From contig CP142737.1 in assembly GCA_036630325.1 (NCBI GenBank), positions 744,001-808,000 on the forward strand: a stretch of 64,000 nucleotides of DNA, in the 5' to 3' direction. The position numbers and the translations under genes were made by a program. This stretch comes from Vairimorpha necatrix (lineage: Eukaryota). Each line of letters begins with the position of its first letter. The stretch's first letter is position 1. The notes beneath the pieces were generated by a model, which saw only the letters and a list, made by a program, of their open reading frames with translations, searched no databases and was not told the DNA's origin. Below, one piece after another: positions 7,695-63,010 of the stretch.

Positions 7695-7922
7695 TGTGGT
7701 ATTACAACCACATGTAAAATTCCATTTTCCCAAAATGGAATTTCTTAAATATTTTTTTTAAAAAATATTATTTTTCGACCCCAACAAAAAGAAAGAAGTA
7801 GATGCAGAAAAACAACAATAAACATTTTTTAAATAATAAACAAACAAGGCCCAAGGAGCCGTTTACAAGTAGTTTGCTAGAGGCCTACTTTCAACGAGGG
7901 TTCATCCCTCGTGACCACCTCA
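7695..7922 (+). repeat. 5' LTR of element 1
   Basis: Appears identical by eye to 11525-11752. Confidence 0.95.
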
Positions 7923-11514: not shown

Positions 11515-11524
11515 GGGGGCAGAA

Positions 11525-11752
11525 TGTGGTATTACAACCACATGTAAAATTCCATTTTCCCAAAATGGAATTTCTTAAATATTTTTTTTAAAAAATATTA
11601 TTTTTCGACCCCAACAAAAAGAAAGAAGTAGATGCAGAAAAACAACAATAAACATTTTTTAAATAATAAACAAACAAGGCCCAAGGAGCCGTTTACAAGT
11701 AGTTTGCTAGAGGCCTACTTTCAACGAGGGTTCATCCCTCGTGACCACCTCA
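11525..11752 (+). repeat. 3' LTR of element 1
   Basis: Direct repeat of 7695-7922 following the PPT. Confidence 0.95.
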
Positions 11753-14700: not shown

Positions 14701-15369
14701 GGAAAGATAATATCAGAAAACAACAATGGCGAAGTCGAGTTTTATGTTTTGGTCGTATTTTTTGTCCTGATGCGTATACTAAGCCATTTGATGATATGAA
14801 CACTGAATTAAAAAACAAAATAAGTCATAGGTGAGCAGCAATTAAAAGTTACAAGATTTTCTAAAAGAAAATATATTTAATTAAACTCGTTCTAATTTTT
14901 TTACACGATTTGACAATAGTTTTTGAAATAATTTCAATAACTTTACACTTTTTCGCAAAATCTCAAAATTTTTATATTTTCACTACATGCACATTTACAA
15001 AAATTTATAGACATACACAACACATGATTCCAATGCATTCTTAAAGCAAAATCTTCTCTTAATATTAACATAAAGCATGATTTAGATAGTATTGATGGTT
15101 TAGAAAATAAGTCAAGCGAGGTCTAAATCTTGTTCTATTTGAAAAAAGATGTAAAGAAATAAATGATTCATAGAAAGTTATTTTATGTTACAATAACTTT
15201 AAAAAAGTTGAAAAAAATATGATTTTTTTTCTTAATTAAAGAAATTATCACGACGACAGATTGTTGTTTTGTATTTATGTGACAATATATGCATCAAATA
15301 AGATTTAAAAAATATTTAATCCTATTCGCATTCTAAGTCCCTTTTTAGGTAAAAATGCTAAAAATTAAA

Positions 15370-15417
15370 TGTATTTATTTATCATAATGGAGGTAAAAAT
15401 TATCAAAATATATAACA
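15370..15417 (-). repeat. 3' LTR of element 2 (48 bp)
   Basis: Identical to 18499-18546 and directly adjacent to the PPT. Confidence 0.92.
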
Positions 15418-15440
15418 TCCCCCCTCCAAGACGGTTAGTC

Positions 15441-15770
15441 TCACTTTATCCTTAACCCAAGCAGACTTTTTAGATCATAGTGCCTTTTCTTTACATATCT
15501 TCCATTTACTAACTTAACTATATAAGAATCATTGCCACATCTCTCTATAATTTTCCCACTCTCTAAAAACCTACCTTTCGAATATTTATCCGCACCTTTC
15601 AAGTTTTCCTTCTTAGCTACTCTCACGTACTCACCTACTTTAAATTTTTCCCGTTTCCCCATGTTAAACAGTTTTCCATATTTCCCCTGTGGGCTATTTT
15701 CAATCATTACATGTCCAGTTTTATCCTCTGTCGCTTCTATTGGTGTACATTTTAGTGCCGTGTGGTAAAA
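15441..15770 (-). CDS. Integrase C-terminal part of element 2, split off by a frameshift
   Basis: Shifting frame at the A4 run 15767-15770 gives YNMS/YHTALKCTP... continuing into FKVGEYVRV (ORF 15441-15707). Confidence 0.8.
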   Translation of the reverse strand, partial: FYHTALKCTPIEATEDKTGHVMIENSPQGKYGKLFNMGKREKFKVGEYVRVAKKENLKGADKYSKGRFLESGKIIERCGNDSYIVKLVNGRYVKKRHYDLKSLLGLRIK

Positions 15771-18499
15771 CTCATATTATATTTTTCAATGCTTCCCATG
15801 ACCTTCTCTGCAAATGTACCTTCTTTAGTCTTCAGAATGCTCTCTCGCAGCGTACCTATAACCCTCTCGACTCTGCCATTACTCCTGTGTGATTCGACAC
15901 TTACTTTTCTATGTTTAATTTCTAGTCTGTTACACAACTCTCTAAACCCCTCATTGATAAATTCTCGCCCATTATCCGTTATAATCTCTTCGGGCTTTTT
16001 TCCTTGTTCACACAACTTACTTAAAAATTCTGTCACATTCTTTCCAGTCTTGTTCTCCATTACCGTGCCCCATACTCTTCGAGTGTAATAATCTATCGCA
16101 ACCAATACGTATTTACCTGCGTCTCTAAAATCAATGAGATCCAAGGCAACCTTTTCTAAATAACGTGTAGTATCTACAAACTCACATCCACCGAGTCTTT
16201 TTCTATTATATATTTGACATTGTACACACTTTCGAATTGTCTCATTTATGTCCTTCTTTATTCCGGGCCAAGAAAATCTTTCCCGCATCGCGTAATATAC
16301 ACTTGTCATACATCTATGTCCAACTTTTTCGTGGTATTCCTGCATCAAACTTTCCCTTGACTCTTCTGGTGGTATCTCGACTTTCCGTCCTGAATCAAAT
16401 CTCCAATATTTTTTTCCTTCTGCGTCATCGACGTGCGCTTTCCATTTACCCTCTATCTGCTTGGCGGTCCTTTCTCTGATTTTCTTTTTCTTTTCATCGT
16501 CTTCCATATGTATCCTGCTTAACGCGTCAGCCACCACCATTTCTTCTGGTTTCTTATATTCTATGGTGAAGTCAAATTCCTGGATCTTTTCAATCCATCT
16601 ATTTATTCTATTGTTATTAAAACACGGTTTATTTCTAATCTCAACCAAGGCTTTATGGTCCGTCTCGATTTTAAACTTCCTACCGCGCAACTCGTATTCA
16701 AATCTTTTTATCCCCCAAAATACCGCGTACATTTCTTTCTCCGATATAGTATATCTGGTCTCTGTAGGTGTTAACTTTTTTGAACTCCATTGGATTGCTA
16801 CCCATTTATCTTTATCGTTCTTCTGAAGTAACACGGCTCCTATCCCTACATTGCTCGCGTCCGTTCTCAATATAAATTCCTTCCTATAATCAGGCAATCT
16901 AAGTTTCCCCATCGCTCTCAAAACATCTTTCAGCTCTAAAAACTCTCTATTCATTTCAACCGTCCATTCCCACTTCTTATCTTTACCTCTCAAGCTATCT
17001 GTCAGATGAATAGTTAATCCCGCGTAATTCTTTATAAAGTTCCTAAACCATCCTGTCATTCCTAGGAATCTTCGTGTTTCACTTACACTTGTCGGCTGCG
17101 GGAATTCCAACGCCTCGTTCTTCTTTATTTCATTCGCTTCAATATCTGTACCATTCAATGTGACTCCTAAGAGCTTAACTAACTGTTGGCTAAACTGTAT
17201 CTTCTCAATATTTAATCTCATTTTATGTCTTTTTAATCTTTCCAATGCTTCTATAACTAGCTTGTCATGCCTTCTTTTAGTTCTAGCGTGTATAACGATG
17301 TCGTCCATATATACCTCCACTCCTTCTCCTTGTAAATCTTCAAATATTTGGTTCATTATTCGTTGTAAAATCTGCGGGGAATTTTTATATCCCATTACCA
17401 TACTGTTCCATTCATATACCTTTCTGTTAAATTCAAAGGCCGTTTTGTGCTTATCCTCTTCTTCAATCTCTACGTGGTAAAAGCCTTCCTTCAGATCTAT
17501 AACGGTAAACCATTTAGACCCCTGTGTGGCTCTAACGATGTCCCTAATATTTGACAACTCATACGGATCTTTTTCAACTAAGTCATTTAAACTCATTAGA
17601 TTACTTACAAGCCTTACTCCTCCGTTAGGTTTTACTATAGCTCTAATTGGGTTCCTCCACTCGGATGTTGATCTTCTTATAATCTTTCTTTCTTCCAAAC
17701 TTTTTATATATTTTTCAGTTTTTTCCATCAACGCCTGTGGGATAGTTTGTCCTCTTTTAACTACTTTTTTCCCTGGTGGCGTCTCAATTTTACATTTCTC
17801 TATCTTACAGTGTACGATCTCTTCCTGCTGCAAGTCAAAAATTTCTCTAAACTTCGCTTTTATATCTTCAATGACAAGGCCCTCTTCTATTCTATCCTCT
17901 CTCATTCCTCTCCTTTTTGAATTTTGTTTACGTTTTGCTTCTCCGCATTTCCTATATTCTTGTGCGCTAAGTTCTGTGCTTGTAGATCCACTCTCTTCAT
18001 GAACAATTAAATACTTGTTAAAATGTTTATTTTTATTATCTTCTTCTTTCCTCTTCCTTACGAAGCAATCTCTTGCCATGTGCCCAAATCTACCACAGTA
18101 AAAACAATCTCTACTTCTTACTCTCGTAGTTTCTTCCCTTATTTTTCTTAATGTTCCTCTGTTTGCCAGCTCCTCTCGAACTGTTCCTCTAACCGACTCT
18201 GCAATTATTTCCATCATCTTACTTTTGTCTTCTTCTTCCTTCTTTTTTAATTCGTCCTTTCTAACCTCCTTTTCCATTTCTTCAATAATTAAGGACCAAC
18301 TATCTTCTTTTTTAATTCTTTCTACCATAAAGTTCTTTACTTCTTCCGAACCCATTTCATAAATTCTTGCCTTCCATAGAGACTCATCTACTCCATCCAA
18401 CTCTAGCTTATAAACTATTCTTTTAATTTCTTGTAACATTATTCTGGCCTCTTGACCACAGCCATCACTTGTTGACTCTCGATTTGGTATCGCCCCCAT
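15752..18499 (-). CDS. Gag-Pol polyprotein (short Gag with CCHC, RT, RNase H, integrase; no visible protease)
   Basis: CFYCGRFGHMARDC, YMDD, TDAS, ETDH, H..H..C..C, LDLID..TDNG..ER; start could be 18499 or 18514. Confidence 0.9.
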   Translation of the reverse strand: MGAIPNRESTSDGCGQEARIMLQEIKRIVYKLELDGVDESLWKARIYEMGSEEVKNFMVERIKKEDSWSLIIEEMEKEVRKDELKKKEEEDKSKMMEIIAESVRGTVREELANRGTLRKIREETTRVRSRDCFYCGRFGHMARDCFVRKRKEEDNKNKHFNKYLIVHEESGSTSTELSAQEYRKCGEAKRKQNSKRRGMREDRIEEGLVIEDIKAKFREIFDLQQEEIVHCKIEKCKIETPPGKKVVKRGQTIPQALMEKTEKYIKSLEERKIIRRSTSEWRNPIRAIVKPNGGVRLVSNLMSLNDLVEKDPYELSNIRDIVRATQGSKWFTVIDLKEGFYHVEIEEEDKHKTAFEFNRKVYEWNSMVMGYKNSPQILQRIMNQIFEDLQGEGVEVYMDDIVIHARTKRRHDKLVIEALERLKRHKMRLNIEKIQFSQQLVKLLGVTLNGTDIEANEIKKNEALEFPQPTSVSETRRFLGMTGWFRNFIKNYAGLTIHLTDSLRGKDKKWEWTVEMNREFLELKDVLRAMGKLRLPDYRKEFILRTDASNVGIGAVLLQKNDKDKWVAIQWSSKKLTPTETRYTISEKEMYAVFWGIKRFEYELRGRKFKIETDHKALVEIRNKPCFNNNRINRWIEKIQEFDFTIEYKKPEEMVVADALSRIHMEDDEKKKKIRERTAKQIEGKWKAHVDDAEGKKYWRFDSGRKVEIPPEESRESLMQEYHEKVGHRCMTSVYYAMRERFSWPGIKKDINETIRKCVQCQIYNRKRLGGCEFVDTTRYLEKVALDLIDFRDAGKYVLVAIDYYTRRVWGTVMENKTGKNVTEFLSKLCEQGKKPEEIITDNGREFINEGFRELCNRLEIKHRKVSVESHRSNGRVERVIGTLRESILKTKEGTFAEKVMGSIEKYNMSFTTRH

Positions 18500-18546
18500 G
18501 TATTTATTTATCATAATGGAGGTAAAAATTATCAAAATATATAACA
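18499..18546 (-). repeat. 5' LTR of element 2 (48 bp)
   Basis: TGTTATATATTTTGATAATTTTTACCTCCATTATGATAAATAAATACA immediately followed by a TGG PBS. Confidence 0.92.
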
Positions 18547-18904
18547 TTAAATGCCAAAAACAAAGACGCCATGCGACTGCCGATGCGTTTTAAATTAGGT
18601 TAAATACATAAAATAACATTATGTAACATGTATTTTTATCAATCAGTGACAGAACAATCACATGTTTTGAGGATGTTTTTTACTTTTTAATTTTTTTTGT
18701 CAGTCGAACATCCAATAAAAATTTCAATAAGTTTTTACCACCTTTTAACATAAAAACATTACCAATTTAAATATTTTTTCAATATAACTACTAGTGAAGA
18801 CGACATTAGCAGGTGTCAGGCATGAATAATAATAGGTTTAGAGAAGTTATATCTCTATAAAGCACTTACAGAAATATTTTTTATAGAATTAATTTTTTTT
18901 TAAA

Positions 18905-19560
18905 TAATTAGATCATATGGCCACACAATGTGATCGTATGCTTTCACATGATTACATGAGATGGCAGAATGAGGCACTGCGATGCATCCACCTGCAGTAG
19001 TGTAAGACGTATGGTCTATCCCATGCCAAAAGAATTAGAAATCATTCAGTCCAGGAATGTGTAGCTAATGAGTATGTTGAGATACGAGTCGATAGTAGGA
19101 TACATTCAAGTATTAAAATAAAGTATAACAAGCCTGATATACTAATTGTAGACAAGTTGAGGAAAGAAGTGATCGTTGTAGAAGTTGAAATCACAATTTT
19201 TAACAACCTCCATGCTGTAGAAACAGAAAAGAAACATAAATACGACTTGCTCGCAAATCATGTGGCTTCTTTCTACAAATAAAAGCCGAAAATTATTTCT
19301 TATGTGATGACGTGGGATGGAATAGTAACTAATTTTCACCGTACGCATATCAAAGTGCTCAGATTAGAACCCTGAACGGAAGCATATATACAGTCAAGAG
19401 TCCTTAAAATGACTCTAGAAAGACTAACTATGTCAGCCAGACATGGGCTTGATACAGATCAGGAAGGGGTTTTCGAGAGCCCAATGAGTGAATCTCAGAA
19501 GGAAGTCCTGGAACTGCCAGATGAGACTGCAAGCGTATCTTGTGAAAAGTAATTAATAAG
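18905..19560 (+). mobile_element. Degenerate 5'-truncated RLE non-LTR retrotransposon (subfamily B)
   Basis: Interrupted translation LDHMATQCDRMLSHDYMR..NEALRCIHL, IRVD, KPDILIVD, VEVEI, YVMTWDG, YIQS, homologous to 780-1330. Confidence 0.85.
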
Positions 19561-28644: not shown

Positions 28645-28916
28645 GAAACATTTATAATTAAATAAAGGAGATGGATAAATTTTCTTGCTTGATATCGTGT
28701 ATTGTAAGCATAAAAAGAATAAAGACATACACTTATTGATTATGCTACTACAAACCAATGGATTAAATGATCAATAAAAACAATGATTCAATATTTTAGT
28801 TGTTGTAAACATCGTTTATAAAAAATTTGTTTTATATCATTTACTTTTTAAAAAAATTTGATAAAAGAAGAATTAGTAATAACTCATATTCGCATGCATC
28901 TGTCATTTTATGGGTC

Positions 28917-31900
28917 TGTCATGCGGTAAACCCACGCTGACCATTAGAATCCCTAAACCCAAAGACTTTTGACATGCGTTCGGAATAAATTAAATGTTTG
29001 ACACTTTTTGGTGTACAAACATTTATGACGTAAATATGTGTCTTACACATATTTCTACAATTTCTGTTTTCTTTTTATTTCCCTCCAAAATGGAAATATG
29101 TTTAATTAATATTTGCTAAAAAGTATTTAAGCAAATTGCCCCAAGAAGGGCACGATGAGTAATAAACGTTTAATTGATAATTCATCTTCTTTAAGTAAGC
29201 CCGCCAAGTATTGTCTAGAGACTAACTCGACAACAAGTGGCGACAACGGAGAGATTTCAGAAAAAGATTCCCTTGGCCTGGTAATGGAAGGATTGAAGAA
29301 TTTAGCACTAACTGACAAACTGAGTGAATTCAATGGTTATGAGAATGAGGATCCCAAGGCCTTTCTAGATCAATTTCTGGCATTTGAGACAAAATGGGCT
29401 GCAAATTATCTGCACCATAAGATTACGAGTATGCTGAAAGGAAAAGCAAGCCTGTGGTTTAAAGCCCACGAAAAGAAATTGGAAACCTATAAAAAATTTA
29501 TTGAAGGCTTTAAAAAGAGATTCGTCAAGGAAGTAAAAGTTACAGAGAACGCAGAGTTCTTTTGGAGATGTATCCAGGAAGGACCCAAGACCTCAGATGT
29601 AATCTCTTATTACTATAGTTTACGAATTTACGGAGAAGAAAATGAACTTTTATATACAAGAGCTAAGGAAAGAATCGTGGAGTTAGTAGAGGATGAACAT
29701 TTTAGATTTCATCTCAACACGTGTGAAAATTGGGACGAACTTGAAGCCTACCTGGAAGAAAACGAAAAGCCGATGAATAAAAAATTACGTTATTTCGGAA
29801 GAAAGCAAAGCATTACTACATTTCCAAGAAAAGAATTTGCAAAGAGAGATCAACCCGTTAACAAAGTAGTCGCAGAGTCGACAGGGCGATCAATATCCGA
29901 CGGAATGAGGAAAGTCCTTAGTATCTCAGCTAAGGTGAAGAATCAGGAAGATAATAGACCAAGAATTGAGTTGGTCTATGGCGATAATATTGTGAATGCA
30001 CTTTTAGACACAGGAGCTACAGTGACGGTAATTAAAAAAGCAGTAGCGGTACAACTCGACGCTCCCATTCAGAAAGAAGCCGGAGAAATTAAGGGCTTAA
30101 AGGGAGGGCGTCAGATTGTAGGTAGATGTTACCTAAACATAAAAAAGAAAGGTGAAAAACAGCCGAAAGGTTTTAATTTCTTAGTAGTCGAAGATATGGA
30201 GGAATCGATGTTGTTAGGCATTGAGGAGATTCGAAGACTAAATCTATTTTCATATCTTGCTCAGAAGAAGCAAAAAGATAAAATCACAAACAAAAATATT
30301 GTAATGGAAGCTAAGTTTGAAAACGAAGTAATAGAATCCTGTACTGATATTCAAGAATTATTAGAAGACATTGATTGCGACGAAGACAATACCAAACAAG
30401 AATTTAAAGACTTGATATCTGAATTTGGAGGCGTGTTTCAGGATGAAAATAAACAGATAAATATTGATATAGAACATGCAATCGAGCTGATGGAGGGTTC
30501 CAAAATGTCTATATGTCCTAAGTATAAACGATCTCCGGAAGAACATGAGACAATTAGGACAGAGGTTCAGAAATTCCTAACTCAAGGTTTGATTGAAGAA
30601 AGCCAGAGCCCATATGTGTCACCAGTGGTACTAGTAAAAAAAAAGGATGGTGGGTTGAGATTTTGCATCGACTTTAGAAGACTAAATAAAATTACTATAC
30701 CATACGAATATCCGATCCCGCGTATCGACGAAACTTTGGATCAATTGCAAGGCGCAAGAATTTTCAGTGTAATGGATGTAGAAGCAGCTTACAATCAAGT
30801 AACAGTTAAAAAGGAGGACCGATTTAAAACAGCATTTTACACTAGAGAAGGAGTTTTTCAATGGAAAAAGATGCCGTTTGGGCTTATTAACGCCCCCTTT
30901 ACATTTCAAAGAATAATGAATAAATATTTTAAACAGTATATGCATAAATGCGTCATGGTTTATTTGGATGATATTCTAGTATTTTCAAAAGATCACAAAT
31001 CTCACTTAATACATCTGAGACAGATTCTCGAAATTATCAGAAAAATAGGATTTAAGTTAAATAAAAAAAAATGTAAGTTTGTGCAGGAAAAAGTCGAATT
31101 CCTAGGTTATGAGGTAATTAACGGTAAAGTAGAAATACCGTTACAACAAAAAATGAAAACTATGGAATGGAAGACACCGCAGACAAAGAAGGATATCCGG
31201 GCATTTAACGGATTTTCGGCATTCTTCAATAGGTTTATCAAGGATTATGCACAAAAGATGTTACCCCTATATGAATTACTAAAAGGAAAGGAAAAAACTA
31301 AGTTTGTTCTAAGCGAAGAAGCATCAGAAGCTTTTGAGATAATGAAAGCAGAAATAAGAAAGGCGTCGGGATTACTTTTACCTAACTTTGATAAAAGGTT
31401 TTATATCGACACTGATGCATCGAACTTGGCAATAGGAGCCGTATTATCTCAATTGGATGACTACGAAAATAAATTAATGCCTGTAATCTGTTTCTCGTTG
31501 AAGCTTTCAGCTGAAAAAATTAATTATACAGTGACCGAAAAAGAGTGTTTGGCAGTAATTTGGGCGGTTAAAAAGCTTCGAGTATACCTTACTAGAGAAT
31601 TTACCATAAGAACTGATCATCAGGCCTTGAAATGGCTGTTAAATTTGAAAGAAACATCAGGAAGGTTAATGAGGTGGATACTCACTCTTCAAGAATATAA
31701 TTATAAGATCGAATACCTACCAGGAAAGATCAACGTGATCGCAGACGCAATGAGTAGGATAGTGATGAATGTCGCTGAAGAGAGACCCAAGGAAATTTCA
31801 GAGGAAGCTAAATTGGAAGCTATTATGAGAAGTCATAATGACTGTGGACACGGTGGTGTGGATGCCACGTATACCTTATTGAGAAAGGACTTAATCTGGA

Positions 31901-33182
31901 AAGGGATGTATAATGAAGTAAGAGATATTTTAAAATCATGTTCTGTTTGCAATAAATTCTCACGAGGCGTAAAAAATTTACAGAAAATAAGACTCCCTTT
32001 AACTAATCCACTGGACAAAGTTGGAATCGATCTCGTTGGACCTCTCCCAAAATCGGAAAACGGCAATAAATTTATAATTATTGCAACGGATTATATAACG
32101 AGATGGTGTGAAGCTGAGGCGATAAAAACAAAATCGGCGAACGTTATAGCTGAATTTCTTGTAAACAAAATATTTTTACAATATGGCCCTCCAAAAGAAC
32201 TGTTGTCAGACCAAGGAACTGAATTTACCAATTCACTGGTTAAAAGAGTGTGCAACATGATGAGCACCAAGAAATCGTTTACCTCGAGCTACAATCCTAA
32301 ATGTAATGGATTAGCCGAGAGAACAAATCAGACTCTGATAGGAAAACTAGCAAAGATAGTGGACGGGCGTTGGAAAGAATGGGATGAGTACTTACCATAT
32401 GCCGTATACGCATATAGAATATCTCCAAGAAGATCAACGGGACATTCTCCATATGAATTATTATTTGGTAGAGCACCTAATCGGGTTGTTAATGAGAATA
32501 AGTTATTCTCAGAGGTTGAAGAAGATAATAACTTAATTATTGAGCGACTAAATCAATTTCGAGATACATTATTAAACTTAGAACGAGAAATTAGACTGAC
32601 GGAAATGGACAGAGTGAAACCAGAACAAGATTCTGAAGACTTAAAGCTAAACGATTATGTAAGAAGAAGGAAACAACCAAATGAACGTTTAAATAAACTA
32701 GATAACAGGTTCGATGGTTTTTTTAGAATTATTAAAGTTGGAAGAAATGGCAACTATGATATTGAAGACGTTTTAGGAAAAAGATTTTCAGTCAATCGAA
32801 AGGATATCATGAAAGTTGAGGAATCTGATCCAGCAGAGTGGATCACTTCTAAGAGGGGAAGTATGTCATGCGGTAAACCCACGCTGACCATTAGAATCCC
32901 TAAACCCAAAGACTTTTGACATGCGTTCGGAATAAATTAAATGTTTGACACTTTTTGGTGTACAAACATTTATGACGTAAATATGTGTCTTACACATATT
33001 TCTACAATTTCTGTTTTCTTTTTATTTCCCTCCAAAATGGAAATATGTTTAATTAATATTTGCTAAAAAGTATTTAAGCAAATTGCCCCAAGAAGGGCAC
33101 GATGAGTAATAAACGTTTAATTAATAATTCATCTTCTTTAAGTAAGCCCGCCAAGTATTGTCTAGAGACTAACTCGACAACA
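28917..33182 (+). mobile_element. Full-length Ty3/Gypsy LTR retrotransposon (element 3)
   Basis: 319-bp LTRs (28917-29235 and 32864-33182; one mismatch seen, 29176 G vs 33123 A), TSD GGGTC, PBS TGGCGAC, PPT AAGAGGGGAAG. Confidence 0.97.
29155..32919 (+). CDS. Intact single-ORF Gag-Pol polyprotein
   Basis: 1254 aa; LLDTGA, YLDD, TDAS, RTDH, HHCC, IDLVGP..SDQG..ER. Confidence 0.96.
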   Translation: MSNKRLIDNSSSLSKPAKYCLETNSTTSGDNGEISEKDSLGLVMEGLKNLALTDKLSEFNGYENEDPKAFLDQFLAFETKWAANYLHHKITSMLKGKASLWFKAHEKKLETYKKFIEGFKKRFVKEVKVTENAEFFWRCIQEGPKTSDVISYYYSLRIYGEENELLYTRAKERIVELVEDEHFRFHLNTCENWDELEAYLEENEKPMNKKLRYFGRKQSITTFPRKEFAKRDQPVNKVVAESTGRSISDGMRKVLSISAKVKNQEDNRPRIELVYGDNIVNALLDTGATVTVIKKAVAVQLDAPIQKEAGEIKGLKGGRQIVGRCYLNIKKKGEKQPKGFNFLVVEDMEESMLLGIEEIRRLNLFSYLAQKKQKDKITNKNIVMEAKFENEVIESCTDIQELLEDIDCDEDNTKQEFKDLISEFGGVFQDENKQINIDIEHAIELMEGSKMSICPKYKRSPEEHETIRTEVQKFLTQGLIEESQSPYVSPVVLVKKKDGGLRFCIDFRRLNKITIPYEYPIPRIDETLDQLQGARIFSVMDVEAAYNQVTVKKEDRFKTAFYTREGVFQWKKMPFGLINAPFTFQRIMNKYFKQYMHKCVMVYLDDILVFSKDHKSHLIHLRQILEIIRKIGFKLNKKKCKFVQEKVEFLGYEVINGKVEIPLQQKMKTMEWKTPQTKKDIRAFNGFSAFFNRFIKDYAQKMLPLYELLKGKEKTKFVLSEEASEAFEIMKAEIRKASGLLLPNFDKRFYIDTDASNLAIGAVLSQLDDYENKLMPVICFSLKLSAEKINYTVTEKECLAVIWAVKKLRVYLTREFTIRTDHQALKWLLNLKETSGRLMRWILTLQEYNYKIEYLPGKINVIADAMSRIVMNVAEERPKEISEEAKLEAIMRSHNDCGHGGVDATYTLLRKDLIWKGMYNEVRDILKSCSVCNKFSRGVKNLQKIRLPLTNPLDKVGIDLVGPLPKSENGNKFIIIATDYITRWCEAEAIKTKSANVIAEFLVNKIFLQYGPPKELLSDQGTEFTNSLVKRVCNMMSTKKSFTSSYNPKCNGLAERTNQTLIGKLAKIVDGRWKEWDEYLPYAVYAYRISPRRSTGHSPYELLFGRAPNRVVNENKLFSEVEEDNNLIIERLNQFRDTLLNLEREIRLTEMDRVKPEQDSEDLKLNDYVRRRKQPNERLNKLDNRFDGFFRIIKVGRNGNYDIEDVLGKRFSVNRKDIMKVEESDPAEWITSKRGSMSCGKPTLTIRIPKPKDF

Positions 33183-45359: not shown

Positions 45360-45477
45360 AATTACGGCCATATCTACTGTAAAGCACCGGAACTCGTCAG
45401 CTCTCCGAAGTTAAGCCAGTAAGAGCCTTGTAAGTACTGAGATGGGAGACCGCTCGGAAAAGCAGGGTGCTGTAATT
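45360..45477 (+). rRNA. 5S rRNA
   Basis: ~118 nt; terminal helix AATTACGGC/GCTGTAATT, conserved CCGAAGTTAAGC and AGTACT..ATGGGAGACC, oligo-T terminator. Confidence 0.95.
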
Positions 45478-46316
45478 TTTGAAAATTTGATAAGGTGCAA
45501 TTCATTTTATTTGTCCACATATCTTTTTTATTGCATGATAAAATCAAAAAAAATGACCCTTTTGACATTATTCCTCCGTATACATATATTTTTATTTTTG
45601 AAAGTCAAGGTAGTGAAAATAAAATTTATAAAACAAAAACAAGAATTTCATAGGCCTTATATTGAAAATTGACTCAATAATCACAATAACAGTTTATAAT
45701 GATATAAAATTCTTTTAAACAGTGTTTAATATCTCAAAGTATCATATTTTTTACTTGTATTAATATTACACTTGCCAAGGTATAATAAATTTTCATGTTT
45801 TTTAATAATTCACATTTGTATTCTTTCTTCTATTCAAATCTTATACTAAGTTTTTTAATACATATAATTTTACGCACCTTGCCTTATAAACATCTTTAAG
45901 ATGTATAATATCGATTTTGTGAATAGTAAGAAATAAATTCTATTATTAAAGTATATATTTCTAAGATAATTGCACTTACAACATCCCAATAAGTTATAAT
46001 AAATTGATTAAGACTTCTCTTTTTTGCGTATAAAATGTATAATAAAGAGATGTCATGACCTTTTAGGTCGAAGAAAGATTGCAAATAAAAATGTGTTAAA
46101 TTTACCAATATGTTATATTCTTGTAATTTTATTTTATTTTGCTCATCCACATTTTCCACTTAGACTTTCAAAAATTATGCTAAAAATAAAATCTAAAATT
46201 TTTAAAATTGAATATGACCTTGATTCGTGACATTACGCCTTAGAAAAAATATACTACGCACAATTGAGCTTGCTTTTATAAATTTGACTAAAAGAATAAA
46301 AGGTTGCATTTTATAT

Positions 46317-47607: not shown

Positions 47608-48326
47608 TGGCTTGGTTTTTTCCCAGGGGCATCAAAATTATTTTAACTTGTTATGATGCAGATGGAACAACTCAGATGATGAAAATGTCCACATTATCAT
47701 TAAATATGATCAATGAAACTTGTGTGCGTCGAGCCACAAGGGAATTGTGCTCTAGTGTTAAATGCTTTTGAGGCTGAAAAAACAGTAATCCTCTCGTAAT
47801 GACTTAATGATACATAAAAGCATCTGATACGTATGGCATGCGCCTTCTAAATTAAGATCATAAGTTGACTAAGAGATCAGACGAAGTAGAGCAGTAGAAA
47901 GTCTTCCGGACCCTATTCTACAAGATTCTTTAGCACGGCGCAGAAAATTATGGGAGAATGGTGATCAACGCAGCCCAATAAAAATGCCGGGCTGGGGATG
48001 TGGTCGTGTAAGGAGCCGTGTGTGCGATACAGATGATTGTAGGGACCTTTGAGTCAGTACGATGATGTCTCTCCTCGGGTTATAGATAACCATGCCCGTT
48101 AAGTATATCGCGCTGTGAGGTCACTCTGGACGCGATTTGAGGTATAAATGGAAAGTGTTCTCCTGTTCAAAGTTCAATGGATACAACGGAGTTTGCTGCA
48201 CAGTCAAGTCATAAAGAAAGTTTTGTGAGTAAGAATCGTACAGTGCTAGTTGGCAAAAAATCACACACAAATATATCTGGACCCTATGTAAGGTTACCCT
48301 CTACCCCTTATTTATAAGAAAAAAAA
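47608..48326 (+). mobile_element. Older, 5'-truncated copy of the tRNA-headed SINE-like element
   Basis: Colinear with ~55783-56530; remnant CCCAGGGGCATCA head and short A tail; no clean TSD. Confidence 0.85.
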
Positions 48327-52412: not shown

Positions 52413-53560
52413 CAGGGTTTTGCATTTCTATATTCCCATAAAAATAAGAAATTTCAATAATAATAAAAAATGTTTAGTAAATAAAATCTTCTCTTGCTCT
52501 TGCCTTTTCTAGCCAGCCTATCATATTTCTGTAAAACGCAGGACACTCACGGTTATAATCTAAACTCAAAACGTTCTCAATAATTGTTTAAATTAGACTT
52601 TCTGATGAATGAAATGATGAAAATCTTGCCTTGAGCATTGAAAAAAACTCTTCAATGGGATATAGTTGTGGTGAATAAGAAGGCAGAAATTTGTGATTAA
52701 TGCCTAGATTATTTAATTTTTGTAAAACTTTCCGCGAATGATGAAAACTGGCATTATCCATTATAAGAACTTCACCTGGATTATTTCTAAAAAACATAAA
52801 AAATTTATTTTTAACAAAGTTTATAAAATTCTCGGAACTATATGCTCCGCGTTTATACTCAAATGCCAATAATCCATTTATAGTAATTACACACATACAG
52901 CTTATATTTTGGCCACTATTTGCTGGCACATTTTTATAGGCTTTAGTATTCTTTTCTGAATATCCGCAACTTAGCATAGTATGAGCGTTAAACGCAGTTT
53001 CATCGAGAAAAACTAGGTTTTCGGCCGAGTACCTACTAATTTCGGAGGCATAAATACTTCTTTGGTTTATTTTGTCCAACGAGTTACGTTCAACAGGAAT
53101 CAAACTGAGCCTTTTTCTTGTTATACCGAGTTTTTGAGTTTTCTCGATATTGAAGATTTTGACAAATTTACATTTGTTCGTATTTTAACTCATTAGAAAT
53201 TTCCTGTAAAGTCATATCGTTTGCACAGTCAACTATGTTTTTAACAACCCGATCTGTATTCGAAAGCATTTCATTTTGATACAACTGCCGGAATAGACCT
53301 TGTAGGTTGATTGTGCTGGTTTCGAATAATAGATGCAACGGTTTTACGATGTAAATCAACCATAGTCGATATTTCGGCTATGGATCGCTTTTCATCTTTT
53401 GCCAATTCGAAAACGATATTATTTAATTCGTTGGTTATTGTTTTCCTTATTTTTCTTACCATTAAGGGGATTAAAAAATTCAAATTTTTATAAGAATATA
53501 GAAATGCAAACATGGGAATATAGAAATGCAAACAGGGGAATATAGAAATGCAAAAACCTG
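52413..53560 (-). mobile_element. IS630-Tc1-mariner DNA transposon (DD34E) with a frameshifted transposase
   Basis: ~25-bp TIRs CAGG(G/T)TTTTGCATTTCTATATTCCC, TA TSD, FLDET / MDNASFH / SPQLYPIE with 34 residues from D to E; ATG at 53462. Confidence 0.92.
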
Positions 53561-54461
53561 TATTCATATCGCTTTCAAAGACCAAATTATCCATCTTTTC
53601 ATTAAATTTTTAAAAACATATTTAAATTAGAGGGATTAGTGATGTTATTATTTGATATTGTTTATAAAATCAATGATATATTTGGACTGAACAATCGAGG
53701 AACCCCAAATTTCTTACACGGTCTTATACAGGTATAAGAATCATCTACGTATATAACGACTATTATATCTTGTCAAGTTAAATATATAAATATTTTATAA
53801 TACTTTCCCAAATAAAAAAATCATTATAATAATTTAGTTACAGATACATTTTGTACTTGTTTTGCTTAGACTTCGTTCTAATATAACTTTTTATCAAACA
53901 AGCAGTTTTGATATTAAAGTGCATTTTAGTCAATTGTAGAACATAAACAGCTATATATAACGAACTTATTGATGTATACAGATTGCAAACATATAAATAT
54001 ATTATTTTTTTTGCGCACTTTAATTGGTACAATTTACGATATACATTGAAAAAAAAATTATTTTTTGTTTATTCTAAGGTTTGATTAGAAATGTGTTATA
54101 TAGGGTTCTAGTTGCTTATAAAATATGACATAACAATCTAAAATACTATTCTTTGTAGACTAATCTTTTTGTAACAAATCTCTTTTAAGCAGTAAGCATT
54201 TTACTTGAATTTTCTTGGTCCGCGGTATTTAAAAGCATTATGTTTTTTATATATTTAATTACAAAAAAAATTCTATAAATTATTCTCAGATTTCAAAGCC
54301 AATTTGTATAATGCGTTCTGTGTTTGTCACGGGAAAATCGTATTCTTTTAAACCAAAAAAACCAATGGTGCCTTAAAATTAAAGACATAATAATAATTAG
54401 AATGTATACAAGAATATGAACCAATTTTCTGTAAATTGAGAGTTTATCGAGAAGTATAATA

Positions 54462-55140
54462 GGTACATGACCGTTTGGAACCCGCTTTGGGAAAATAAAC
54501 TTGCTTTGAAATTTTAAAGGACCCCCTTTAAAAAAATGGCAAAATTGGCAAAAACAATGTTTGTTGAGGCAGATGAGGTTTTTAGTGATGTAATGTATTT
54601 ATACGTGGAATATAAAGAAAAGTTTATTTTGGAAACATTTGATGCTGAATCGGCGTGCGCCTTGCTCGTTTCTGTAACTAGTAGAATACTGCTTTTTCCT
54701 TGAGGTGATACAAGAAAATGTATAACCTGTTTCTATTATGATCTCTAATCAATGGGTAGCATATGATGTCACATTAGCTAAGCAAAGGGATGGAGCACAG
54801 TACTAAGAATCACTCCGTAAATGCCATAACCTCTAACCTCTAGCGATTCCGAGTCACAATATTATATAATTTAGTTGGTTTCGGCTCATTCCTATAAGAG
54901 ATATTTGATCTTAACATAAACAAAGAAGAACACTATGAGTACCTTTTACAGTTTCACCAGGCTTTTCAAATTCCCAAAAATTAACGGATAAATTGTCTTC
55001 TGTCATTTTTTAAAATAAATCATCAAGTCCTTTTTTTATAACTTTTTTTTATTTTTCCCTTTTTTTGAATTTTTCAAAGCGGGTTTATTTTCCCAAAGCG
55101 GGTTCATTTTCCCAAAGCGGGTTCCAAACGGTCATGTACC
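54462..55140 (+). mobile_element. Non-autonomous Merlin (IS1016-like) DNA transposon
   Basis: TIR GGTACATGACCGTTTGGAACCCGCTTTGGGAAAAT, 8-bp TSD GTATAATA, GG/CC termini, decayed KIG..VEADE, W.AY and NHS motifs. Confidence 0.85.
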
Positions 55141-55739
55141 GTATAATACTTAAAAAATGATAAATTATTATTATGTTGTTTCAAAGAACACTTTCACTAT
55201 TTTCTACATTTTTCCTTTATCATTTTTAAAAAGCTTTACTTCTCTAATTTAATTGATCGAGCATTTAGATCTAAAAATCAATGTAAACTCCATTTGTTTA
55301 AATATTTCAAGTCGACAATTTGGAAGCGTTTACTGGCGTCTTGACATTTGAATCCTTCTTTGAGGTAGAAAACTGTGGTGTAATATTTTTTGTAGTTTTT
55401 TATCTATATAAACTTGTCAAGATCTAAGGATGTGATGTTATTTTGAGTTATCCCGAATCAGCCTTTTCAAATAATTTTTGTTATTTGTTGATTTTTCCAA
55501 CCTCGCATTTTAGGATTTCGATTAAAAGAAATATCTAAAATACTATAAATACAGATATTTTTAAAGTAGCCTTGTTTTATACATTGCCTAGTTTTCTATA
55601 TAGTTTATGCTAAACATATACAGCAGAAGATCTATTTTACAGAGTATTGATTACCTACATCTACAGATCATATATATATATATAAGGATTTCCACTTTTG
55701 TTCAGTTGTGTTTTTTGAACATCACGACAATTTATAAAA

Positions 55740-56537
55740 GGTGCCCTTGGCCGAGTGGTCGAAGGGATGTTCTCATTGACCAATGGGCTGGGTTCGAGTC
55801 CCAGGGGCACCAAATTGTTTCTACTTTCTATGATGCAGTTGGAACAACTCAGATGATGAAAATGTCCACGGTAATCATTAAGTTGATTCAATGAAACTTG
55901 TGTGTGTCCAGCCACAAGGGGATTAGCATCTAGTGTAGAAACGCACCTCAAGGCCAAAAAGCAGTATCGCCCTTTGGTGACTTAATAATAAATAAAAGTA
56001 TCTAATAGGTACGGCCTAGTTGGAGCCCATGGCTGGTGACTCTAGAGTAGGATTCTAGAGCTAACTAAGAGACTAGACGAAGTAGAGCAGTAGAAAGTCT
56101 TCCGGACCCTATTCTACAAGATTCTTTAGCACGGCGCAGAAAATTATGGGAGAATGGTGATCAACGCAGCCCAATAAAAATGCCGGGCTGAGGATGTGGT
56201 CGTGTAAGGAGCCGTGTGTGCGATACAGATGATTGTAGGGACCTTTGAGTCAGTACGATGATGTCTCTCCTCGGGTTATAGATAACCATGCCCGTTAAGT
56301 ATATCCGCTGTGAGGTCACTCTGGACGCGATTTGAGGTATAAATGGAAAGTGTTCTCCTGGAGCCAAAGTCCAATGGATACGGCGGAGCTTGCTGCACCG
56401 GCAAGTTATACGGAGGGAGTTTTAGTGAGTAAGAATCTCACAGTACCAGTTGGAAAAGGATCACACCTAAATCCCTCTGGTCCCTATGTAAGGTTTCTCC
56501 CTACCTCTTACTTGCAAAGAAAAAAAAAAAAAAAAAA
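55740..56537 (+). mobile_element. tRNA-derived SINE-like element, full length
   Basis: A box TGGCCGAGTGG, B box GGTTCGAGTCC, paired acceptor and T stems, poly(A) tail, 13-bp TSD GACAATTTATAAA (55726-55738 and 56538-56550). Confidence 0.9.
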
Positions 56538-56877
56538 GACAATTTATAAACTATAGACTATGATTTATTCCTCTATGGTTTTAAAAATTTTAATAAATAT
56601 GCTCCTTACGAATCTTGTATATGATAAAATTTTTATCTACACAATTAAAAAAATTATTTAACATTGTATGTCTTTTCCTTGTGTTTATTGGATGGAAGAT
56701 TTTAAATAATTATTAGTTCTTTCGATTATTCAAGGCATAAAATTTTTTGAACGTGTTTATTTGTTATATCTATTTCTTCGGTGTTGATTCTTTCAATTAC
56801 TTCATTGCCGAATATTATTATAGTTTCTGGGCATTGTCGTATAACAAAAGTTATTACAAAGAAATACAAACAAGAAA

Positions 56878-57050
56878 GTTTAAAATGACTATAGAAAGCC
56901 TAACTATGTCAGTCAGACATGGACTTGATACTGATCAGGAAGGAGTATTTGAGAGTCCATTGCGTGGATTCCTGAAGGAACTCCGGGAACTGCTAGAAGA
57001 GACTGTAAGCGTATCTTGAAAAAAGTTGTTAGTAGGTAAGATATTTTATT
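56878..57050 (+). mobile_element. RLE non-LTR 3'-end fragment (subfamily B)
   Basis: Aligns with 19405-19560. Confidence 0.8.
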
Positions 57051-58060: not shown

Positions 58061-60430
58061 TTAATTGTTCATAACACTTGATAACCAGTCACGAATAGAT
58101 TGCTTCTTTTTAGGTATCATTCGAACTTCAATTTGAGCAGGTAAAGTAAAAATTTTTATAGTTGGATGCACTGAGGTGTTCGAAGCTTGGCCCTTAGATG
58201 TTTCTTTTGATTCATTAATTACAATAATCTTTTGGGTATTAAGAGACTCTGTCTTTGGTTGTACTAAATTTTTTTCTCTTGATACTTCTGTTGATAAATC
58301 TACAGGTTTTTCCTTTGTATTTTCTACAGGTTTTTTTGTTGGTAACTCTACGGGGTTTTCTGTTGGTAACTCTACAGTCTTTTCTACAGGGATTTCTGTT
58401 GGTAGTTCTACAGGCTTTTCTTTATTACTTTCTACGGTAATTTCTGCTGGTAACCTTGCAGGCTTTTCTGATGATATCTCTTCAGTCTTTTCTTTAGTAA
58501 TTTCTACTGTCTTTTCTGTTGGTAACTCTACGGGGTTTTCTGTTGGTAACTCTACAGTCTTTTCTACAGGGATTTCTGTTGGTAGTTCTACAGGCTTTTC
58601 TTTATTACTTTCTACGGTAATTTCTGCTGGTAACCTTGCAGGCTTTTCTGATGATATCTCTTCAGTCTTTTCTTTAGTAATTTCTACAGTCTTTTCTGTT
58701 GGTAACTCTACGGGGATTTCTGTTAGTAACTCTACAGTCTTTTCTACAGGGATTTCTGTTGGTAGTTCTACAGGCTTTTCTTTATTACTTTCTACGGTAA
58801 TTTCTGCTGGTAACCTTGCAGGCTTTTCTGATGATATCTCTTCAGTCTTTTCTTTAGTAATTTCTACAGTCTTTTCTGTTGGTAACTCTACGGGGATTTC
58901 TGTTGGTAACTCTACAGTCTTTTCTACAGGGATTTCTGTTGGTAGTTCTACAGGCTTTTCTTTATTACTTTCTACGGTAATTTCTGTTGGTAACCTTGCA
59001 GGCTTTTCTGATGATATCTCTTCAGTCTTTTCTTTAGTAATTTCTACAGTCTTTTCTGTTGGTAACTCTACGGGGTTTTCTGTTAGTAACTCTACAGTCT
59101 TTTCTACAGGGATTTCTGTTGGTAGTTCTACGGGCTTTTCTTTGTTACTTTCTACGGTAATTTCTGCTGGTAACCTTGCAGGCTTTTCTGATGATATCTC
59201 TTCAGTCTTTTCTTTAGTATTTTCTACAGTCTTTTCTGTTGGTAACTCTACATTTTTTTCTACAGGCTTTTCTTCTGGTAACTCTACATTTTTTTCTACA
59301 GGCTTTTCTTCTGGTAACTCTACAGTCTCTTCTACAGGTTTTTCTTTAGTAATTTCTACAGGTTTTTCTTTAGTAATTTCTACAGGTTTTTCTTTAGTAA
59401 TTTCTACAGGCTTTTCTTTAGTAATTTCCGCTGGCCTTTCTTTAATAATTTCTACAGGCTTTTCTGATGACAAATCTACAGTCTTTTCTTTAATAATTTC
59501 TACAGGCTTTTCTTTAGTAATTTCTACAGGCTTTTTTGATGGTAACTCTACAGGCTTTTTTGATGGTAACTCTGCCGGCTTTTCTGATAGTAACTCAACA
59601 GGCTTTTTTGATTGGTTTTCTACAGGCTTTTCTTTATTACTTTCTACGGTAATTTCTACTGGTAACTCTACAGGCTTTTCTGATGATATCTCTTCAGTCT
59701 TTTCTTTAGTAATTTCTACAGTCTTTTCTGTTGGTAAATCTGCAGGCTTTTCCTCTGGTAACTCTATAGTCTTTTCTACAGGTTTTTCTTTAGTAATTTC
59801 CACCGGCTTTTCTTTAATAATTTCTACAGGCTTTTCTGATGACAACTCTACAGTCTTTTCTTTAATAATTTCTACAGGCTTTTCTTTAGTAATTTCTACA
59901 GGCTTTTCTGATGGTAACTCTACAGTCTTTTCTTTAGTAATTTCTACAGTCTTTTCTGAGGGTAACGCTACAGTCTTTTCTGCTGGTAACTCTACATTTT
60001 TTTTTACAGTCTTTTCTTCTGGTAACTCTACAGTCTCTTCTACAGTTTTTTCTTTAGTAATTTCTGCCGGCTTTTCTTTAGTAATTTCTACAGGTCTTTC
60101 TTCTGGTAACTCTACAGTCTCTTCTACAGGGTTTTCTGCTGGTAAATCTACAGGCTTTTCTATTGTTAACTCTACAGGCTTTTCTTTATTTATTTCTACG
60201 GGTATTTCTGTCGGTAACTTTACAAGCTTTTCTATTGGTAACTCTACAGGCTTTTCTTTATTATTTTTTTCGGGGATTTCTGTCGGTAACTCTACAGGCT
60301 TTTCAGTTGCTTTTTTTATAACCTTTTCATCCACAATAGTTTTTATGGATTCAGGCGGGCTCCCAGTAGTTGTAGCTTTTACATATGAGTTTAGTGCTAT
60401 GCTAGAAACTATAATTAGATTAAATTTCAT
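58061..60430 (-). CDS. Secreted E/K/P/V/T-rich repetitive protein (candidate spore wall or polar tube component)
   Basis: Signal peptide MKFNLIIVSSIALNSYVKA, CCCC before ATG, 8-aa EKPVE-type repeats. Confidence 0.85.
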   Translation of the reverse strand: MKFNLIIVSSIALNSYVKATTTGSPPESIKTIVDEKVIKKATEKPVELPTEIPEKNNKEKPVELPIEKLVKLPTEIPVEINKEKPVELTIEKPVDLPAENPVEETVELPEERPVEITKEKPAEITKEKTVEETVELPEEKTVKKNVELPAEKTVALPSEKTVEITKEKTVELPSEKPVEITKEKPVEIIKEKTVELSSEKPVEIIKEKPVEITKEKPVEKTIELPEEKPADLPTEKTVEITKEKTEEISSEKPVELPVEITVESNKEKPVENQSKKPVELLSEKPAELPSKKPVELPSKKPVEITKEKPVEIIKEKTVDLSSEKPVEIIKERPAEITKEKPVEITKEKPVEITKEKPVEITKEKPVEETVELPEEKPVEKNVELPEEKPVEKNVELPTEKTVENTKEKTEEISSEKPARLPAEITVESNKEKPVELPTEIPVEKTVELLTENPVELPTEKTVEITKEKTEEISSEKPARLPTEITVESNKEKPVELPTEIPVEKTVELPTEIPVELPTEKTVEITKEKTEEISSEKPARLPAEITVESNKEKPVELPTEIPVEKTVELLTEIPVELPTEKTVEITKEKTEEISSEKPARLPAEITVESNKEKPVELPTEIPVEKTVELPTENPVELPTEKTVEITKEKTEEISSEKPARLPAEITVESNKEKPVELPTEIPVEKTVELPTENPVELPTKKPVENTKEKPVDLSTEVSREKNLVQPKTESLNTQKIIVINESKETSKGQASNTSVHPTIKIFTLPAQIEVRMIPKKKQSIRDWLSSVMNN
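58321..59250. repeat. About five near-identical 180-bp coding tandem repeats
   Basis: Sequence recurs at 58321, 58501, 58681, 58861, 59041 and 59221. Confidence 0.93.
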
Positions 60431-61630
60431 GTGGGGTACGATTTTTTTTTCTTTTATCTACTTTTTAATTTAGCAAACAAACAAAAAAACAAATAATTTT
60501 TTCTTGCTTAAGATATTGTTATTGCATTTATTATATGCTATTGAGAACTTTTCCGTTTTGTTTGTTATGAAATTTGTCATCGTGACGTGTGATATATGAC
60601 AATAAATTATTTTTTTTTGGTTTTTTACAAGAGAAATTTGTGCTTTTTAAAATTTTTGTCGGCTATGATGTTTTACTAAATGCGTCACATAATACTAATT
60701 TTTAAAAATTTAATTTTCTATTCTACTAACGTGTAGTTTTTGTTGAGATCTTTTCTTTTTGTGATATAAGATTCAAAACAAATAGATCTCCTTAATTATT
60801 AAAATATTTTGGATATTATATACATTTACTAAGCTACCATGTTTAATTAAATTTGTATTACTTTTTTTGATAAAATTAAAACATTTAAATCTTTAAGTCT
60901 GTTGTTATTTTATTTGAATTGTACTCATATAAAATTGTAGAAATAAATTTTTTAATTTAATGTATTAAAAATTGACTAAAAATATACAAAACTAATTTTG
61001 TGATTTAAGCATGGTCTCATCTTTAGTTGTTTCGTTTATAAACTACTCGTCTTCTGATACCTGTCATCCAGCAAACGGTAGACATCAGACTTAATCATTA
61101 TTTCCGATATATGTATAATACACAATCCTATAATGATGCCGTCCTTGAGCATTTTTTGGTGTTTGCACGTTTAATAAGATAAATATATTCTATAACTAGA
61201 GTAATTACATTCTTATCATCAAATATCTGAACTTCAGTTTGCATTATATAAATGACTAAAAGCTTTATTGTGTCTTTTTGGTACCTTTAGATTGTATATG
61301 CTTTTATAATATAGAATATAACAAGTGAGTTTGTTTTATTAGCAAACATAAAAGTTAATTTTTAATAATGTTACTACTAATTTAAAAATGGCGTGGTTTA
61401 AATATTTCATAATTATAAGGTTTAGATAAAGTTCTAAAATATAAACTTTGCTTTATAAAATACAAAACAATATTAATAGTTTTTTTATTTTTAAGATCTT
61501 TATTCATAAAATTAAGGGGGAAATATATAAATTTTGAAAGGCACCCGGGGTTTTCGTCCCGGTTTTAGGGGTTAAAAAAATAAAAAAAATAAAAAAAACG
61601 AACTTGTTTATTTTTTTATTTTTTACCCCT

Positions 61631-63010
61631 ATGACCTGGCCAAAAAGGATCATTAAAAGCAACAGGAATATGGATCAAATAATAGATAAAAATCTATATA
61701 TTTATAAAAAAAATAACAAAACTACTAAAAAGTGGCGTTGCAATGTACGAAGCTGTAATGCCAAAGCCTACAGTAGTATTGTTTACGTCAATAATTTCGA
61801 AACATTAATTATTTCTTCTGCTCATAATCATGAACCAAATCCTGAACTGGTCTGTAAGAAGAATAAAATAGATAAAATGAAACGGGAAATTATCGACAAA
61901 GATTCTCCTAGAAACATTCTTTCTGCCTTAAGAGGAGCTGGGGAAGAAACAATCGCCGCAATAGGTCCTATTGAGCCTATTGCAAGGATATTAAGGAATG
62001 CTCGGATGAATTCCTTTAATCCAAAACCATACGCCAACCAAAAATTGGGTTTATGTGTTGATTTTTTTTCAAACATACAGGCGAACAATGGTATCGATAT
62101 GAGCCTGAAAATTACGGGAGTGACGAACCCAATGACAGTATAATAATTTTTTATACAGATTCGGCTATAGTAAAATTGGCTCTATATGACGTGTGGGCGA
62201 TGGATGGGACCTTACGGTGGTTCCAATTTCATATTTTCAACTTTACACAGTAGTTTTATCCGTGATGCGCACGTATTTCCTATAATATTTGCAATTTTGA
62301 AAGAAAAAAGTTTTGAAACCTATTGTTTTTTTTTGTTTCAAATGTTAATGAAAAGGTTTCCAGAGCTCAACCCAAAGTTAATAAACCTGATTTTGAGTAT
62401 GCTGCGATAAGAGCATTTTCTATAGTTTTCCCGAATTGTCAAATTTCAGGTTGTCTTTTTCACTTAGCTCAGGCTATTGTTAGGCGTGTTAAAAGTTCAG
62501 GACTTTCTTCTGTTTACACATGTTTACCTATGATGAAAAAGTTTGTTTTGTCTCTTACGGCACTTGCATATGTTGAATATGACGAAATATTGTCTACTTT
62601 TTTGGAACTAAAACAAGACAGAAATTTTCCTGAATGCTCGACTGAGTTATATTGCTATTTCTTTACAAATTATATTGATTTAGGATGCCGTTTTCGCGAA
62701 TTTGTGGCACACGCGAAATAATATGGATATAGATTTTCCAAGAACGAATAATGCTATTGAAGGTTGGGTAATACCTTTAAAAACACATTTGGTACTAGTC
62801 GCTACAGTTTTTATCAATTAATGAGCAAGTTAAAAAATGAAGAAGATATAGTTAGAATGAAGATATTCCAACAAACAGTTTTAAATCATGTTTTCGAACG
62901 TAAACAAGAATACATAGATAAAAAGATTTAAATAGCTAATTTTTTGAATAAAACTGTGGATGAAGGGTTTGGTGCAGATTTTGTCTTTGAAATTATTGAA
63001 ATATTAAAGT
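61631..63010 (+). mobile_element. Degenerate Mutator (MULE) transposase; termini unresolved
   Basis: FLYWCH/WRKY-like WRC..C..HNH, WAMDG, DFEYAAIRAF..FP..GCLFHLAQA and PRTNNAIEGW across frameshifts. Confidence 0.85.

Follow-up and report, generated by a model that had tools for sequence, protein, structure and literature searches.

Does a microsporidian genome harbour a SINE family of its own, and is the unit described here one of its members? Microsporidia are the textbook example of eukaryotic genome reduction, yet some of their lineages are rich in transposons. The unit, referred to below as copy A, lies in a 64-kb stretch of DNA (the window), and an earlier note on this stretch had proposed that it is a SINE-like retroelement inserted by target-primed reverse transcription. 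Its anatomy, together with the many variant contigs found in public sequencing runs, supports that proposal: copy A is a genuine and well-formed SINE-like retroposon that most probably belongs to a large family residing in a microsporidian of the Nosema clade.

Anatomy of copy A and its target-site duplication

Copy A is a single retroposed unit on the plus strand at 55740–56537, with a length of 798 nt including the tail. It opens with a degenerate tRNA-derived head of 73 nt (55740–55812), recognised by ARAGORN, a sub-threshold Rfam alignment and the promoter boxes, and closes with an A18 tail (56520–56537), which is the sole A run of at least 10 nt within the 64-kb window, as against three T runs of 10–11 nt elsewhere in it. 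The body between head and A18 is 707 nt long (55813–56519) and comprises a 5' domain (55813–55870), a variable central part (55871–56058), a conserved stretch of 302 nt (56059–56360) and a 3' domain (56361–56519).

According to self-BLAST, the element is flanked by a direct repeat, GACAATTTATAAA, whose 5' copy (55726–55738) and 3' copy (56538–56550), both on the plus strand, match at 13 of 13 positions. A single extra A (55739) sits between the 5' duplication copy and the head. Exact 13-mers spaced 300–1500 bp apart amount to 99 k-mer pairs in the window when the tandem array is left out; by our own count, 62 of these come from a single real duplication at 28.3–29.2 kb, and the rest represent about 24 events including that of copy A. 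The chance that a 13-mer pair abuts both head and tail is approximately 1e-5 (our own arithmetic). As for the insertion site, the primer end at the inferred first nick, beside the GAC that opens the duplication, is not T-rich, and from this one site no target preference is definable.

The A tail and the 13-bp duplication reported in the earlier note are thus present as described. Copy A is also short (<1 kb), non-tandem and interspersed, the window holding two dispersed copies 8.2 kb apart, one of which, copy A, carries both marks of retroposition, i.e., a duplication and a 3' tail. Readings of copy A as a solo LTR, a MITE or a coding gene were ruled out, as it has no terminal repeats, combines a 13-bp duplication with an A tail and gives no Pfam match in the scanned ORFs. 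Because its boxes are intact, its tail long and pure and its duplication perfect, copy A is young.

The tRNA-like head

The head has a 7-bp acceptor stem (GGTGCCC/GGGCACC) and an intact T arm (CTGGG-TTCGAGT-CCCAG), just as the earlier note had read them. ARAGORN reports it as a 73-nt tRNA-Met(CAT), the sole tRNA call in the window. In the ARAGORN register three of the five anticodon-stem pairs form (our own reading), and the Rfam tRNA model, aligned over positions 1–71 of 71, scores 20.3 bits on the head versus a gathering threshold of 29; the remark that a proper anticodon arm is lacking is therefore correct. The D arm presumably resembles that of a class II (Leu/Ser) tRNA, and the head ends without CCA. 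Its fold has a z-score of −4.27 relative to shuffles, the most stable fold being other than a cloverleaf. The best Rfam match is reported for mascRNA-menRNA (RF01684) with 28.6 bits, below the gathering threshold of 42.5, and is treated as generic tRNA-likeness rather than membership.

The A and B boxes that had been claimed were recovered as strict matches at 55748–55758 and 55791–55801, respectively, 32 nt apart, and each occurs exactly once when both strands of the 64-kb window are counted. Across 200 shuffles the A box turns up 0.24 times on average and the B box 0.05 times, and no shuffle contains both. The box consensus used for this pattern count is taken from general knowledge. A functional tRNA gene would pass the Rfam threshold and have a proper anticodon arm, and the head does neither. 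Judged from its letters, it is a decayed tRNA copy that has kept its promoter boxes and not a working tRNA gene.

Composition, coding potential and folding of the body

The body had been described as about 700 nt of non-coding DNA richer in GC than its surroundings, which agrees with the measured 707 nt and 46.4% GC (29.3% and 26.3% in the two 1-kb flanks, 28.9% in the window) and with the lack of a Pfam match in the scanned ORFs. The longest ORF overlapping copy A, 106 aa on the minus strand, extends beyond the element. For three of the four longest overlapping ORFs Pfam returned no family at E up to 0.01, and the 86-aa ORF of the conserved 3' domain has no homologue among 5.8 billion proteins. 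According to these ORF scans, the element is non-autonomous and encodes no protein. The Rfam search for which the earlier note had called reported no described family above threshold anywhere in copy A.

The 780 nt of the element without its tail fold somewhat better than shuffled sequences (z-score −3.0, 20 shuffles). The sole internal T4 lies at 56420, and there is no longer T run. Depletion of T runs as a Pol III signature is not significant, with 1 run observed and 2.5 expected from shuffles (P=0.27). The 300 nt that precede the tail contain no AATAAA; the closest one is at 56173.

A 5S rRNA gene at 45360–45478 on the plus strand (96 bits), 2 kb upstream of the second copy of the element, is the one Rfam family that passes its threshold in the window. 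This sole Pol III gene of the window is followed by T5, which, being one example only, is weakly compatible with Pol III reading through a T4.

Comparison of the two copies in the window

The second copy (copy B), which the earlier note had placed 8 kb away, was located at 47609–48326, with its start given as 47609–47626. It lies on the same (plus) strand 8.2 kb upstream of copy A and is 84.0% identical to it over 733 columns. Copy B is 5'-truncated, has a GC content of 41.5% and ends in A8 (48319–48326). It starts within the T arm, so that only the decayed 3' half of this arm is left, the A box is absent and the B box destroyed; nothing in it corresponds to the first 46 nt of the head (38% identity, 12 gaps). 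As for its target duplication, the longest match between the flanks is 7 nt, which is chance level. Copy B is old and dead.

Identity between the copies varies strongly along the body. In the coordinates of copy A, it equals 89.5% at 55813–55870, the 5' domain, which is also well represented in the run contigs, and falls to 73% at 55871–55960 and 62.5% at 55961–56058, which together make up the variable central part with its 18-nt indel. It then reaches 98.3% at 56059–56360 and is 76.6% at 56361–56519, the 3' domain, where the summed contig depth of run X1 is highest. Outside the 98% block, 57 sites have G or C in copy A and A or T in copy B, and 27 sites show the reverse, a bias that fits an older copy B drifting toward the composition of a 29%-GC genome.

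Within the 98% block, the letters at 56086–56191 (47890–47995 in copy B) are common to both window copies and absent from nearly all run contigs. This suggests, as far as two copies can indicate, that the block arose by local gene conversion across the 8 kb between the copies, or marks a recombinant subfamily to which both belong, rather than reflecting selection. The segment 56223–56407, in turn, varies little across the family.

Related contigs in public sequencing runs

The run index lists 15 runs, 11 of which hold part of the stretch and none of which is on record as RNA, which carries no information on expression. Four of them (X1–X4) were aligned, and their contigs were placed on the element at a likeness of at least 80%. 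Related contigs were found in all four. The largest set, 404 distinct contigs, comes from X1, with 120 of them at ≥99% identity, 97 at 95–99%, 79 at 90–95% and 108 below 90%, followed by X2 with 259 contigs, the bat gut metagenome X3 with 19, and the freshwater metagenome X4 with 8 short contigs, the best being 128 nt long with 15 differences and 2 gaps. Since X2 also covers part of the left flank with few differences, it is probably a related strain. X1 may be the very sample from which the window was assembled and therefore does not count as independent support. Small shares of the element are held by the further runs X5–X11, which include bovine, freshwater and root metagenomes and one named organism; no claim about habitat is drawn from them.

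The unique right flank (56552–56843) is covered in X1 by one contig with 0 differences and a depth of 48.2. Summed contig depth in X1 starts at 7,186 in the bin of the head, rises to about 50,000 immediately behind it, drops to 2,293 at 56114–56164 and ends at 214,215 in the last bin. The element thus has 150–4,400 times the depth of the flank, a summed contig depth that is not to be equated with copy number. In X2 the low head and the dip at 56114–56164 are seen as in X1, but the rise toward the 3' end is not. The left flank at 55400–55705 is without cover in X1, a gap that proves nothing.

Loose contig ends at 55812 (10 contigs in X1 and 12 in X2) were read as diverged T arms, and those at 55786 (3 in X2 and 2 in X3) as diverged T arms or anticodon regions. 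Hence, heads belong to the family, and other copies carry them. Many contig joints skip or replace central segments, and such joints appear to point to subfamilies. Taken together, the run contigs are those of a large and diverse repeat family with a modular body; we infer its copy number and its residence mostly in the parasite genome.

Two motifs of the element were also searched in public genome contigs and in viral contigs, with 0 matches in either set. One motif, when searched in metagenome contigs, led to a single locus, which was rejected as a chance match: the alignment spans only 23 nt and the surrounding DNA has a GC content of about 57%.

Genomic context and partner reverse transcriptase

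The window encodes a protein with a DUF5089 domain, which to our knowledge is specific to microsporidia. It has 8 relatives at E up to 1e-5, and the best named one belongs to Nosema granulosis (58% identity). The window is microsporidian, and its nearest named relative is Nosema granulosis. The other eukaryotic genes, all without visible introns, are thioredoxin-reductase-like, a proteasome subunit, Suf and L35Ae. The mobile DNA of the window includes three Ty3/gypsy-type polyproteins as well as Tc1/mariner and MULE remnants.

RT domains were found in 3 ORFs only, all of them of the LTR type with RNase H and integrase. No non-LTR RT or endonuclease domain is present in the scanned ORF translations of the 64-kb window; among ORFs of 55–99 aa the scan covered 103 of 152, the rest lying inside LTR elements and known genes. 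Apart from copy B, the 3' end of copy A has no match elsewhere in the window according to self-BLAST. A partner LINE is thus not seen within the window. The earlier note had spoken of the tails of RLE elements in the window, but neither RLE nor any other non-LTR element was found there; it had named no partner RT, and none emerged from the window ORFs scanned.

Several other repeats were observed. The three LTR retrotransposons of Ty3/gypsy type, each with RT, RNase H and integrase, lie at 7695–11752, 15369–18547 and 28914–33160. The LTRs of the first one are 228 nt long and 100% identical, and those of the third are about 300 nt long and 99% identical; such near-identical terminal repeats suggest recent insertion. 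DNA-transposon remnants occupy 52588–53609 (minus strand) and 61538–62721 (plus strand), with a DDE_3 (Tc1/mariner-type) transposase fragment (E 9e-25), an adjoining weak HTH-like ORF (E 0.04–0.15) and weak FLYWCH and MULE fragments. Just upstream of copy A, at 54462–55140, two 47-nt inverted repeats that are 94% complementary and separated by 585 nt resemble a MITE or the remnant of a small DNA transposon. An unclassified dispersed repeat of 140–170 nt occurs in mixed orientation at 1985–2153, 19359–19527 and 56864–57003 with 78–82% identity, the last of these being 300 nt downstream of copy A. Finally, a 24-nt (8-residue) unit repeated in tandem, with a higher-order period near 180 nt, makes up almost all of a 789-aa ORF at 58061–60430 on the minus strand; Pfam assigns no family to this ORF, and the opposite strand also reads open.

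Origin of the element

The reading that we prefer, with a probability of roughly three in four, is that copy A is a recently inserted full-length member, and copy B an older 5'-truncated member, of a tRNA-derived SINE family in a Nosema/Vairimorpha-clade microsporidian. A head with A and B boxes, a body without Pfam match, an A tail, a 13-bp duplication and many variant contigs argue for a tRNA-derived SINE spread by target-primed reverse transcription. From these features we infer Pol III transcription and a LINE partner. RNA polymerase III, driven by the internal A and B boxes, would start at or next to 55739/55740 and read on through the body of about 700 nt and the templated A tail. An endonuclease and reverse transcriptase encoded by a LINE would then act in trans, nicking the target and copying the RNA by target-primed reverse transcription. 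Staggered nicks would give the 13-bp duplication, and incomplete reverse transcription would yield 5'-truncated copies such as copy B. Counting against this reading are the duplication found at only one of the two copies, the one internal T4, the length of 780 nt without the tail, the window ORFs scanned with no non-LTR RT or endonuclease domain among them, the 3' end with no match elsewhere in the window, the 3' rise in depth that X1 shows and X2 does not, and the 46% GC in a 29%-GC genome, with which the family could come from elsewhere.

The last point bears on where the family has its home. That home may be the animal host or another sampled organism, in which case the window copies would be recent horizontal arrivals or host SINE RNA retrocopied in the parasite. 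We regard this as unlikely, although several observations agree with it: the GC content of the element (46.4% versus 28.9% in the window), its depth in X1 of 150–4,400 times that of the flank, the element-to-flank ratio that differs between X1 and X2, and the element parts seen in bat gut, freshwater, bovine and root metagenome runs. Microsporidian transposons with metazoan relatives are, moreover, documented (PMC4202319, PMC3614468). If one young SINE family were indeed common to the microsporidian and its animal host or hosts, either by cross-kingdom horizontal transfer or because a parasite LINE reverse-transcribes host SINE RNA, the 46% GC, a contig depth far above that of the parasite flank and the traces in unrelated metagenomes would all be explained; the odds of such sharing appear low to us. 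Two insertions of differing age lie within 64 kb of a parasite contig of 992,507 bp, and the AT shift already seen in copy B implies that it has resided there for long. Two copies per 64 kb would alone scale to hundreds per genome, and low-level parasite DNA in metagenomes would reveal high-copy repeats first.

Still less probable is an origin without a dedicated Pol III SINE, with a LINE having retrocopied a cellular transcript, non-coding or made by Pol II, that carries a tRNA-like 5' module, or with template switching onto a tRNA having produced a chimera. For a Pol III transcript, about 800 nt would be an unusual length, an internal T4 is present, mascRNA-menRNA outscores tRNA on the head (28.6 and 20.3 bits, both sub-threshold), and A and B boxes indicate a SINE and are no proof of one, as the SINEBase paper states (PMC3531059). 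Hundreds of variant contigs in several identity classes, with diverged heads among them, argue instead for a self-propagating family, and the 300 nt upstream of the tail are free of AATAAA. Retrocopies of capped RNA commonly have an extra G, whereas the base between duplication and head is an A; in addition, a mature tRNA is ruled out as the template of the head by the lack of CCA. That the resemblance is due to chance, or the unit to faulty assembly, is hardly credible. About 23 other 13-mer direct-repeat events at 300–1500 bp do exist in this AT-rich window (our own count), but head, both boxes, tail and duplication coincide at exact junctions, a second copy is present and the family recurs in independent runs.

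Implications

A SINE family in this position would imply that microsporidian genomes contain active LINE machinery and parasitic transcription driven by Pol III. If high in copy number and, as it appears, recently active, it would add a class of mobile DNA for which published microsporidian surveys give either an automatic total (0.18% in N. bombycis) or nothing. The presence or absence of insertions could provide markers with which Nosema-like parasites of insects and crustaceans can be typed to strain and placed in phylogenies. Were the family shared with hosts, parasite and host would clearly have exchanged a non-autonomous retroposon.

Comparison with known elements

In vertebrates, mascRNA/MEN-beta structures sit at the 3' ends of long non-coding RNAs, and RNase P cuts them out. 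Like the head of copy A, they (RF01684) have an acceptor stem, a T arm and a short hairpin in place of the normal anticodon arm. The head of copy A, in contrast, stands at the front of a retroposed unit.

A full-text literature search returned no characterised microsporidian SINE, and within the reach of that search the earlier note, which knew of none, was right. In Pan et al. 2013, the repeat table of N. bombycis lists 28,669 bp (0.18%) as SINE and 1.04% as Dong-R4 LINEs (PMC3614468, Table 2). This is a Nosema-clade genome with an automatic SINE class, and LINEs of the Dong-R4 type could serve as partners. The SINE row itself is an automatic class total that comes, in this table, without sequence, structure or family description (PMC3614468). 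The word SINE is absent from the main text of Parisot et al. 2014 (PMC4202319) and from that of de Albuquerque et al. 2020 (PMC7313128). For Microsporidia sp. MB one analysis reports zero SINEs (PMC11585130), and a 2026 Glugea paper uses SINE solely as a RepeatMasker class (PMC13702014).

According to SINEBase (PMC3531059), SINEs are interspersed elements of <1 kb that have at least 100 copies and match a tRNA at 60% identity or more across 60 nt or more, the boxes being an indication. The same paper gives a range of 75–662 nt for 175 families and names head–body–tail as the commonest layout (41% of families). Copy A shares with the tRNA-derived SINEs of SINEBase the modules of head, body and tail. 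Internal deletions or replacements are typical of SINE subfamilies there (PMC3531059), and similar joints are seen in the run contigs. The 780 nt of head and body in copy A exceed the SINEBase range just given, and the earlier note had named 100–600 nt as typical. The length is less exceptional than the note implied, however, because elements of 700–900 bp are listed as fungal SINEs (PMC5063351).

Microsporidia are relatives of fungi, and the closest parallels by description are elements listed as SINEs in filamentous fungi. The introduction of that paper lists Foxy from Fusarium oxysporum, mgsr1 (800 bp) and Mg-SINE (472 bp) from Magnaporthe grisea, and Egr1 (700 bp) and EGH24 (900 bp) from Erysiphe/Blumeria graminis, describes Foxy and Mg-SINE as tRNA-derived and gives copy numbers of 11–160 (PMC5063351). 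By description, copy A is likewise non-coding and dispersed, and its length lies in the same range of 470–900 bp. Unlike those listed elements, the one described here resides in an AT-rich intracellular parasite, and the run contigs suggest that its family is larger and more diverse than the fungal ones.
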